4,112 nt of DNA from Escherichia coli (GTDB taxonomy: Bacteria > Pseudomonadota > Gammaproteobacteria > Enterobacterales > Enterobacteriaceae): the NCBI RefSeq assembly GCF_036507355.1, contig NZ_AP027884.1, one strand, 5' to 3'. Below the pieces are notes generated by a model. It had not been told where the DNA came from and searched no databases. It saw only the letters and a list, made by a program, of their open reading frames with translations. The translations under genes were made by a program, and so were the position numbers. Below are positions 2,339-3,414 of this stretch, one piece after another (the first letter of the stretch is position 1; every line of letters begins with the position of its first letter).

Positions 2339-2413
2339 GTAATACGCCGGTATTACATCTTATTTCTTTATTTTCATGTAATTACAGGTGGTTGTAATAC
2401 GTTGCGTATTACA
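2339..2413. promoter_or_regulatory. Cluster of three palindromic operator-like sites sharing a GTAATAC/TGTAAT half-site
   Basis: GTAATAC-gccg-GTATTAC (2339..2356); TGTAATTACA (2377..2386); TGTAATACG-ttg-CGTATTACA (2393..2413). All arms are perfect. Confidence 0.5.
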
Positions 2414-3284: not shown

Positions 3285-3386
3285 ATGCCGTAAAAACAGA
3301 GCCTGCGCGTTTCTGGCGGGTTTTCGGGTGGTTTGTTGCCTGTTTTACCGGTTTCCCGTCAGAAACGCCCTCAGCGCCTCTCAGGC

Positions 3387-3414
3387 GGTGCACGCAACGG
3401 ATGTTATGGTAAAT
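3387..3414 (+). other. Xer site-specific recombination site (cer/psi-like multimer resolution site): XerC arm GGTGCACGCAA, 6-bp central CGGATG, XerD arm TTATGGTAAAT
   Basis: XerD arm is identical to the cer XerD arm; XerC arm differs from psi (GGTGCGCGCAA) at one position; 11+6+11 layout. About 200 bp of potential accessory sequence lies upstream. Confidence 0.6.

Follow-up and report, generated by a model that had tools for sequence, protein, structure and literature searches.

Two paired-subsite palindromes of a small ColE1-type plasmid from Escherichia coli as probable accessory-protein sites of an orphan MOBF-type transfer origin

In plasmid R388, TrwA is a ribbon-helix-helix (RHH) accessory nicking protein that binds the transfer origin (oriT), acts as a repressor of trwABC and promotes nicking; two TrwA sites lie in the R388 oriT (PMC3264647, PMC4853378). 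The inverted repeat IR4 (sbaB) is the target of TrwA, IR3 that of integration host factor (IHF), and IR2 together with nic that of TrwC (PMC4814116). The nic site is located just 3' of IR2 (PMC3264647, PMC4814116), and TrwC, which needs 6 nt on the 5' side and 2 nt on the 3' side of nic, also catalyses oriT-specific recombination (PMC3264647). Next to the R388 oriT, StbA binds two sets of 9-bp direct repeats on an 11-bp cycle. Here we analyse a complete small plasmid of Escherichia coli (contig NZ_AP027884.1 of assembly GCF_036507355.1; 4112 bp, hereafter the window) with a ColE1-type replicon, in which three closely spaced palindromes occupy positions 2339‒2413. The plasmid appears to combine a bom-like site with an orphan oriT of the IncN/IncW (MOBF) type, and palindromes 1 and 3 would be sites for an accessory protein of the TrwA/TraK type. 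We put the probability of this reading, which is built on sequence comparison, at about 0.8.

Orphan-oriT ('pOriT') plasmids described previously resemble the window in having a small ColE1-like replicon, no relaxase gene, and an oriT related to those of conjugative plasmids. ColE1-like plasmids are reported to exchange their oriT by recombination, and a proposal of recombination at oriT exists for plasmids carrying qnrB19. The published ColE1-like example carries an R64-related oriT (oriT-pCERC7), whereas the oriT of the window belongs to the R46/R388 family and, unlike that example, comes along with the partition-type stb repeats of the helper. An 'oriT' has also been reported for pJHCMW1 and the qnrB19 plasmids, and this element could be either the MOBF-type site described here or the ColE1 bom-like site.

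All three inverted repeats of the original prediction are present in the window, at 2339‒2356, 2377‒2386, and 2393‒2413. Palindrome 1 (GTAATAC-GCCG-GTATTAC) constitutes site 1, with the subsites GTAATAC at 2339‒2345 and GTATTAC at 2350‒2356, whose starts are 11 bp apart. Palindrome 3 (TGTAATACG-TTG-CGTATTACA) contains site 2 as its core (2394‒2412), where GTAATAC at 2394‒2400 and GTATTAC at 2406‒2412 start 12 bp apart. Palindrome 2 (TGTAATTACA) is located in the T-rich spacer separating sites 1 and 2. When the plasmid was searched for further copies of the half-site, GTAWTAC was found four times in the 4112 bp, all within the triad, as compared with 0.7 expected from shuffled sequences; the 7-mer is absent from ColE1. 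Each arm, GTA-W-TAC, is itself a 7-mer with two-fold symmetry, and its central A or T sets whether a pair of arms appears inverted or direct. The palindromic look is thus a by-product of the self-symmetric arms. A literature search for the motif returned only irrelevant oligonucleotides, and the ColE1 repeats of Lin et al. 2013, considered as a candidate, are 15 bp long and unrelated.

Conservation was assessed with 126 further loci from genome and metagenome scans, retrieved with an anchor outside the palindromes and reduced to 88 distinct sequences; this small-plasmid sample consists of close relatives. In palindrome 1, neither arm varies in any of the sequences (88/88), whereas the 4-nt spacer between them occurs in 10 variants. 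The arms of palindrome 3 read TAATAC/GTATTAC in 86 of the 88 sequences, and the spacer between them varies in both sequence and length (4 or 5 nt). The 9-bp arms originally assigned to this palindrome do exist in the window, but only a core of 6‒7 bp is conserved among the 88. Palindrome 2 keeps its symmetry in only 33 sequences, 40 carry TGTGATTACA instead, and the IncN-type conjugative plasmids compared have not preserved it; it is therefore probably incidental rather than a conserved dyad. What had been described as a triad thus consists of two sites under sequence constraint with an incidental palindrome in the middle. Variability was also scored column by column (Fisher p = 5e-4), but the alignment slips around the 4/5-nt spacer and blurs this statistic at palindrome 3; the direct motif counts are more reliable.

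The block is found in about 580 PLSDB plasmid records from Escherichia, Klebsiella, Salmonella, Shigella, and relatives, most of them without a relaxase gene. Copies of the block also occur in a 1294-bp 'plasmid' labelled Bacillus anthracis, a 314-bp contig labelled Pseudomonas yangonensis, and a Bacillota metagenome-assembled genome (NZ_CP047105.1, L008, and L011). The likeliest source of these copies is a small enterobacterial plasmid that entered the data as a contaminant or was binned wrongly.

When the sequence on the right of the triad was used as the query of a sensitive DNA search, diverged matches (70‒83%) appeared on plasmids of ~31‒35 kb. Two of these plasmids, p7_2.3 and pR16.0676_34k, both typed as IncN, MOBF, and MPF_T, have an intergenic region between two operons to which the window from 2339 to ~2700 can be aligned. 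On one flank of this region, a traK-like gene encoding 115 aa is followed by the genes for the coupling protein (T4CP) and the MobF relaxase, and on the other flank lies an stbA-like/stbB(/stbC) operon. The oriTs of R388 and R46 occupy the same position, between the relaxase-side and stb operons, and the synteny of the DNA-processing (Dtr) genes, oriT, and stb is complete in L136, L138, R46, and R388. In the window, the stbA-like gene and its repeats are retained on the leading side and the Dtr genes are absent among the open reading frames (ORFs) examined; a truncated antitoxin ORF and the ColE1 replicon stand in place of the IncN traK-T4CP-relaxase operon.

Sequence homology between the window and the oriTs of R46/pKM101/pCU1, p7_2.3, and pR16.0676_34k takes in the subsites and the inverted repeat, then the nic region (GGTGT/AT) and the hairpin downstream of it, and finally the stb repeats. 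Plasmid p7_2.3 in particular has in common with the window the GTAATAC subsites, the GCGTATGG type of nic, and the RGACA class of stb repeats. Site 2 of the IncN-type plasmids (TGTAATAC-GTTGT-GTATTACA) is nearly identical to that of the window. Their site 1, located 13‒34 bp from the start codon of the traK-like gene, is a direct repeat (GTAATAC-CGAT-GTAATAC), whereas it is inverted in the window. The spacer between the sites and the bases after the nick also differ, and the identity over the aligned part is only ~69‒72%.

The layout of the subsites is common to ten plasmids. Counted from the start of the first 7-mer, the four subsites start at 0, +11, +55/56, and +66/68, and the nick falls at +144 to +149. 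The window and pJHCMW1 have their subsites at 0, +11, +55, and +67 and the nick at +148; L004 has the same subsite positions with the nick at +149, and R388 has them with the nick at +145. In pFP119 and R46 the subsites are at 0, +11, +56, and +67 (nick at +148), and in p7_2.3 and pR16.0676_34k at 0, +11, +56, and +68 (nick at +149). Two more distant MOBF plasmids, from Pseudomonas and Xanthomonas, both show 0, +11, +55, and +66, with the nick at +144 and +146, respectively. From the start of site 2 to the nick, the window and both IncN-type plasmids have 93 bp, while R46 and R388 have 92 and 90 bp, respectively. The distance from the centre of site 2 to nic, calculated from the coordinates, is 84.5 bp in the window and p7_2.3; the corresponding values for R46 and R388 are 84 and 82 bp. 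The subsite sequences change within this constant frame. They are GTAATAC/GTATTAC in the window and the IncN-type plasmids; GTATTAC, GTAATAA, TTAATAC, and TTATTAC in R46; GTCTGAC, GTCAGAC, GTCTTAC, and GTATTAC in the Pseudomonas plasmid; GTTTTAC, GTCTTAC, GTAATAC, and GTCTTAC in the Xanthomonas plasmid; and three copies of GTAGTG plus CACTAC in R388.

The comparison with R388 can be extended to individual elements. Outward from nic, R388 has IR2 (GCGCACC-GAAA-GGTGCG), IR3 (AGTCATTG-TAAA-TCAATGACT), and IR4 (GTAGTG-GCATAA-CACTAC). As in the window, there are two accessory sites at a distance of ~55 bp, and each consists of a pair of short repeats spaced by 11‒12 bp; an inverted repeat directly precedes the nick on its 5' side within a homologous nic region; the nick is 82‒85 bp from the centre of site 2; and stbA with direct repeats in 11-bp phase is located on the leading side. 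By position, site 2 is the equivalent of IR4 (sbaB), and we propose that site 1 is the equivalent of the trwA-proximal TrwA site. The subsite itself is GTAGTG in R388 as against GTAWTAC in the window, and R388 encodes TrwA, TrwB, and TrwC beside its oriT, whereas the window encodes none of them. By inspection, IR3 of R388 contains a perfect IHF consensus; no match to this consensus within 1 mismatch was found between or after the sites in the window, including the IR3-equivalent position and palindrome 2.

In the conjugative plasmids, the genes adjoining the sites all encode one protein family of the TrwA/TraK type. The 115-aa protein (WP_001139329.1) matches R46 TraK over its whole length (E=6e-10), whereas its match to R388 TrwA is in the C-terminal part (E=5e-9). 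Its homologues from the Pseudomonas and Xanthomonas plasmids are 45% and ~36% identical, respectively. An RHH-like N-terminus is common to all these accessory proteins. Five lineages of the protein (25‒45% identical, TrwA being alike in the C-terminal part only) correspond to five sets of subsites in the same layout, so that the subsite changes together with the accessory protein. The 115-aa protein is encoded in 131 PLSDB records, 122 of them conjugative, and the 97 records with >90% identity to it belong to the enterobacterial genera in which the small plasmids also occur. No TrwA/TraK homologue was found among the ORFs of the window, and the accessory protein would have to act in trans. The original prediction had also offered a relaxosome accessory site, and this is the reading that gains support from the homology, synteny, and conserved geometry with the IncN/IncW oriTs together with the published assignment of TrwA to IR4.

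The covariation of subsite and accessory protein also bears on the idea that a factor of the host, either a transcription regulator such as one of the GntR/FadR type or a nucleoid protein, binds the palindromes. Such a factor would account for the preservation of the sites in plasmids that encode no DNA-binding protein, and GTAATAC presumably fits the generic GT-N3-AC core of GntR/FadR-type operators. To our knowledge, none of the host transcription-factor motifs considered (LacI, GntR, TyrR, PurR, ArcA, Tus/Ter, and others) fits the sites. Even among plasmids of enterobacterial hosts, the subsite changes together with the accessory protein that the plasmid encodes (GTAGTG in R388, GTAATAC in IncN), and the sites are always at a fixed distance from nic. 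We regard a host factor as quite improbable.

The inverted repeat equivalent to R388 IR2 is located at 2451‒2480 on the + strand (GCAATTGCGAT-GAAA-ATCGCGGTTGC), immediately 5' of the predicted nick, and forms a strong + strand hairpin on folding. Its arms change in a compensatory manner, since an A..T and a G..C pair are perfectly linked (45 versus 43 of the 88 sequences), and the IncN-type counterpart (GCATTTACGAT-GAAA-ATCGTAATTGC) shows several further compensatory pair changes relative to the window. The predicted nic region follows at 2477‒2493 on the + strand (GCGTATGGTGT/ATGACC). It aligns with GCGTATTGTCT/ATAGCC of R388, GCGTTAGGTGT/ATAGCA of R46, and GCGTATGGTGT/ATAGCC of p7_2.3, as well as with Pseudomonas and Xanthomonas plasmids. 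Over a longer range, the conjugative IncN-type stretch GCGTATGGTGTATAGCC...TTAAGGGATACC matches GCGTATTGTCTATAGCC...TTAAGGATACC of R388 and GCGTTAGGTGTATAGCA...TTAAGGGATAA of R46. The alignment, together with what we take to be the exact nick position within the R388 nic sequence, predicts a nick between T2487 and A2488 of the + strand. The 6 nt on the 5' side and 2 nt on the 3' side of the predicted nick are of the IncN type.

Downstream of the predicted nick, a perfect dyad at 2580‒2601 (CGGTTCATG-GATA-CATGAACCG) separates it from the stb repeats. The arms of this second hairpin also change in a compensatory way among lineages, as in GTTCATAC-TT-GTATGAAC and TGGTCATGC-AAG-CATGACCA. The dyad is present in R46 and p7_2.3, and an equivalent one is found at the same place in R388.

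These two hairpins provide a contrast for palindromes 1 and 3, which could in principle act as hairpins in single-stranded nucleic acid, either in the transferred strand (termination or priming) or in a + strand transcript (a terminator or the 3' UTR of the upstream 49-aa ORF). Both palindromes fold with better energies than shuffled sequences, a T-rich tract follows palindrome 1, the stems are invariant while the loops are free in sequence (in palindrome 3 also in length), and G.U pairing on the + strand would survive in two rare arm variants. The stems are weak, however (-4.3 and -6.6 kcal/mol when folded as DNA), the scan yielded no terminator, and the arms show no compensatory change, unlike the two neighbouring true hairpins. 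Site 1 of the IncN-type plasmids, a direct repeat, would have a central A.A mismatch if folded, the corresponding pair in R46 is GTATTAC/GTAATAA, and site 1 of R388 is likewise a direct repeat (GTAGTG-N5-GTAGTG). Since site 1 is a direct repeat in the IncN-type plasmids, it is the 7-mer and its spacing that are conserved and not the hairpin potential, and this suggests conservation of the kind seen at protein sites on duplex DNA. A hairpin function seems improbable to us, although it retains somewhat more weight than a host factor.

The bases around the predicted nick also indicate how the small plasmids may have been assembled. Among them, the two left-flank types of nic, GCGTATGG and GCGTTAGG, each combine with three right-flank types (2477‒2510), which suggests repeated exchange of modules at or next to the predicted nick. 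Such exchange would explain the mosaic structure of the small plasmids. The apparent end of homology at ~2497 corresponds to this exchange junction, and diverged homology continues beyond it through the second hairpin into the stb repeats.

This homology break, just after GGTGTATGACCATTT, was also considered as a sign of a second Xer site, cer-like but degenerate, with the core GGTGTATGACC-ATTTAAGG-GATAATGTAAC, to which the block would supply the accessory region. A local match of 20 nt to the cer core (CATTTAAGGGATAATGTAA) and a block length of ~180 bp, which resembles that of accessory sequences, agree with such a site. The score of the match was reached by 11 of 500 shuffles, and the stretch is the MOBF nic region, with TTAAGGGATA(C) following nic in R388, R46, and p7_2.3 too. 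Canonical Xer cores are located elsewhere, at 3387‒3416 in the window and at 1139 in pFP119; the block has no XerD arm, and the right arm of the other lineages is unlike an XerD site. The idea, prompted by GGTGTATGACCATTTAAGGGATAATG together with the break, was rejected because the similarity is marginal and the stretch belongs to the MOBF nic region; we give it almost no weight.

The original prediction had proposed an operator array bound by a 122-aa protein of the plasmid. The gene for this protein (2698‒3066, + strand, with the ATG at 2698) is StbA-like. The N-terminus of the protein matches NCBIfam StbA_2 (E=1.7e-9) and annotated stbA genes on >1200 larger plasmids, and the whole protein is 39% identical to the StbA-like protein of p7_2.3 (full length, E=4e-31). 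Two sets of three direct repeats (RGACA...) in 11-bp phase are located directly upstream of the gene at 2606‒2698 on the + strand, and the same RGACA class likewise precedes the stbA-like gene of p7_2.3. By analogy with R388, these repeats are probably the binding array (stbS-like) of the 122-aa protein. The stb repeat loci compared were 2606‒2698 of the window, 707‒810 of L005, and 20320‒20490 of L140. Other related small plasmids carry different repeat classes, ACTAC as in pR16.0676_34k or TACATCA as in R46. In pFP119, an 11-bp unit is still repeated in 9.6 copies but the plasmid has no stbA gene, and there StbA may also be borrowed in trans.

If the palindromes were operators of the 122-aa protein, they would serve in its autoregulation or in a partition complex. 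The sites lie ~290‒360 bp upstream of the gene, its product is a DNA-binding protein of the StbA type, and R388 StbA regulates several promoters. On the other hand, the targets of StbA in R388 are direct repeats with an 11-bp cycle, and repeats of this kind are found at 2606‒2698 instead of at the palindromes. The sequence of these direct repeats depends on the lineage (RGACA, ACTAC, TACATCA), whereas that of the palindrome arms stays the same. Intact arms are found in L004, which has rop and an unrelated helix-turn-helix protein in place of the 122-aa gene, and in pFP119, which has no candidate regulator gene at all. The scan found no promoter- or terminator-like site at the triad. Since the arms are unchanged without the 122-aa gene and alongside other classes of direct repeats, the proposed operator array is not supported as the explanation of the palindromes, and operators of this protein in any form appear very improbable.

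Taken as accessory-protein sites of an orphan oriT, the palindromes would work in the following way. Each site would comprise two self-symmetric 7-mers (GTA-W-TAC) one helical turn apart, and would be occupied by an RHH accessory ('nicking helper') protein supplied in trans by a co-resident IncN-type conjugative plasmid, presumably with one dimer per 7-mer and one tetramer per site. Sites 1 and 2 are 55 bp apart, and site 2 lies ~85 bp upstream of the predicted nick. By analogy with R388, the bound protein may shape the DNA so that the MobF relaxase of the helper, which would come from the co-resident plasmid together with the coupling protein, can bind 2451‒2480. The relaxase would then nick the + strand at 2487/2488, and transfer would start with the stbA-like side leading.

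Several points qualify this interpretation. Homology, synteny, conserved geometry, and the change of the subsite together with the accessory protein are observed, whereas we infer binding, stoichiometry, nicking, and mobilisation by analogy. Only the identity of IR4 with sbaB is documented, and the proposed equivalence of site 1 with sbaA is based on its position. No family in Pfam or NCBIfam matches the 115-aa protein, so its RHH label rests on the homology with TrwA and TraK. The invariance of the arms in a sample of close relatives is, taken alone, compatible with a hairpin. The post-nick sequence ATGACC, as against ATAGCC in conjugative plasmids, might reduce the activity of the relaxase; R388, however, requires no more than 2 nt on the 3' side of nic, and in pCU1, post-nick mutations alone left relaxase activity unreduced.

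The rest of the window is in keeping with a small ColE1-type plasmid. RNAI (1324‒1425, minus strand) was the sole family found by the Rfam scan of the window, which gave no match at the triad. The backbone at 1276‒3417 is 91% identical to the Klebsiella plasmid pJHCMW1, while matches to ColE1 are restricted to the ori/bom segment at 1276‒2142 and a cer-like segment at 3321‒3417. An apparent ColE1 bom-like region, recognised by its resemblance to the pBR322 bom, is located at ~2070‒2140, at the end of the ColE1 match. The bom-like site and the MOBF-type oriT apparently are two distinct transfer origins with ~400 bp between them. A canonical Xer site of the mwr/cer type occupies 3200‒3416, with the core GGTGCACGCAA-CGGATG-TTATGGTAAAT at 3387‒3416 and an accessory sequence that shares homology with cer of ColE1 and mwr of pJHCMW1. 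A copy of IS1, recognised by eye and annotated in relatives, extends across the circular junction (~3500‒4112 plus 1‒168), and an AT-rich ORF of 222 aa (370‒1038, minus strand) has a weak WzzB-like match at the N-terminus of its product (E=0.0014).

The acidic micro-ORF immediately upstream of the palindromes (2165‒2314, 49 aa) is a truncated antitoxin of the AbrB/MazE family without the N-terminal DNA-binding domain. Residues 19‒49 of its product are 58‒68% identical to the C-terminal, toxin-binding tail of full-length antitoxins of 81 aa. More than 540 plasmid records contain this ORF in intact form, suggesting that its product is a free-standing toxin-neutralising peptide. The possibility that the block is the remnant of a toxin-antitoxin operon was rejected, as the loci of full-length antitoxins have no DNA similarity to the block.

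The architecture of the IncW/IncN oriT, the binding of TrwA to IR4, the StbA repeat arrays, and the existence of relaxase-less small plasmids with conjugative oriTs are already established, and our results do not describe a new mechanism or regulatory system. Mildly new are the assignment of these palindromes, the four-subsite layout across distant MOBF plasmids, and the observation that small plasmids copy the stb repeat class of the helper along with its oriT. We tentatively suggest, at somewhat less than even odds, that small ColE1-type plasmids copied the whole cis-acting front end of IncN plasmids, namely the accessory-protein sites, the relaxase hairpin, the nick, and the StbA repeat array, and that they hijack both the transfer and the StbA positioning of the helper, with the subsite and stb classes acting as a helper code and exchange at the nick shuffling the modules. 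If this is true, the 7-mer class and the stb repeat class (RGACA, ACTAC, TACATCA) would predict which helper lineage moves which plasmid. The four-subsite layout, seen from R388 to Xanthomonas, would also provide a simple rule for locating accessory sites in uncharacterised MOBF oriTs. Carriers of the block, such as pJHCMW1-like plasmids and small plasmids with qnrB19 or sul2-strA, are common in clinical Enterobacterales, and for these plasmids the orphan oriT would offer a concrete route of spread, in which the relaxase and TraK are provided in trans by IncN-type plasmids of ~34 kb.

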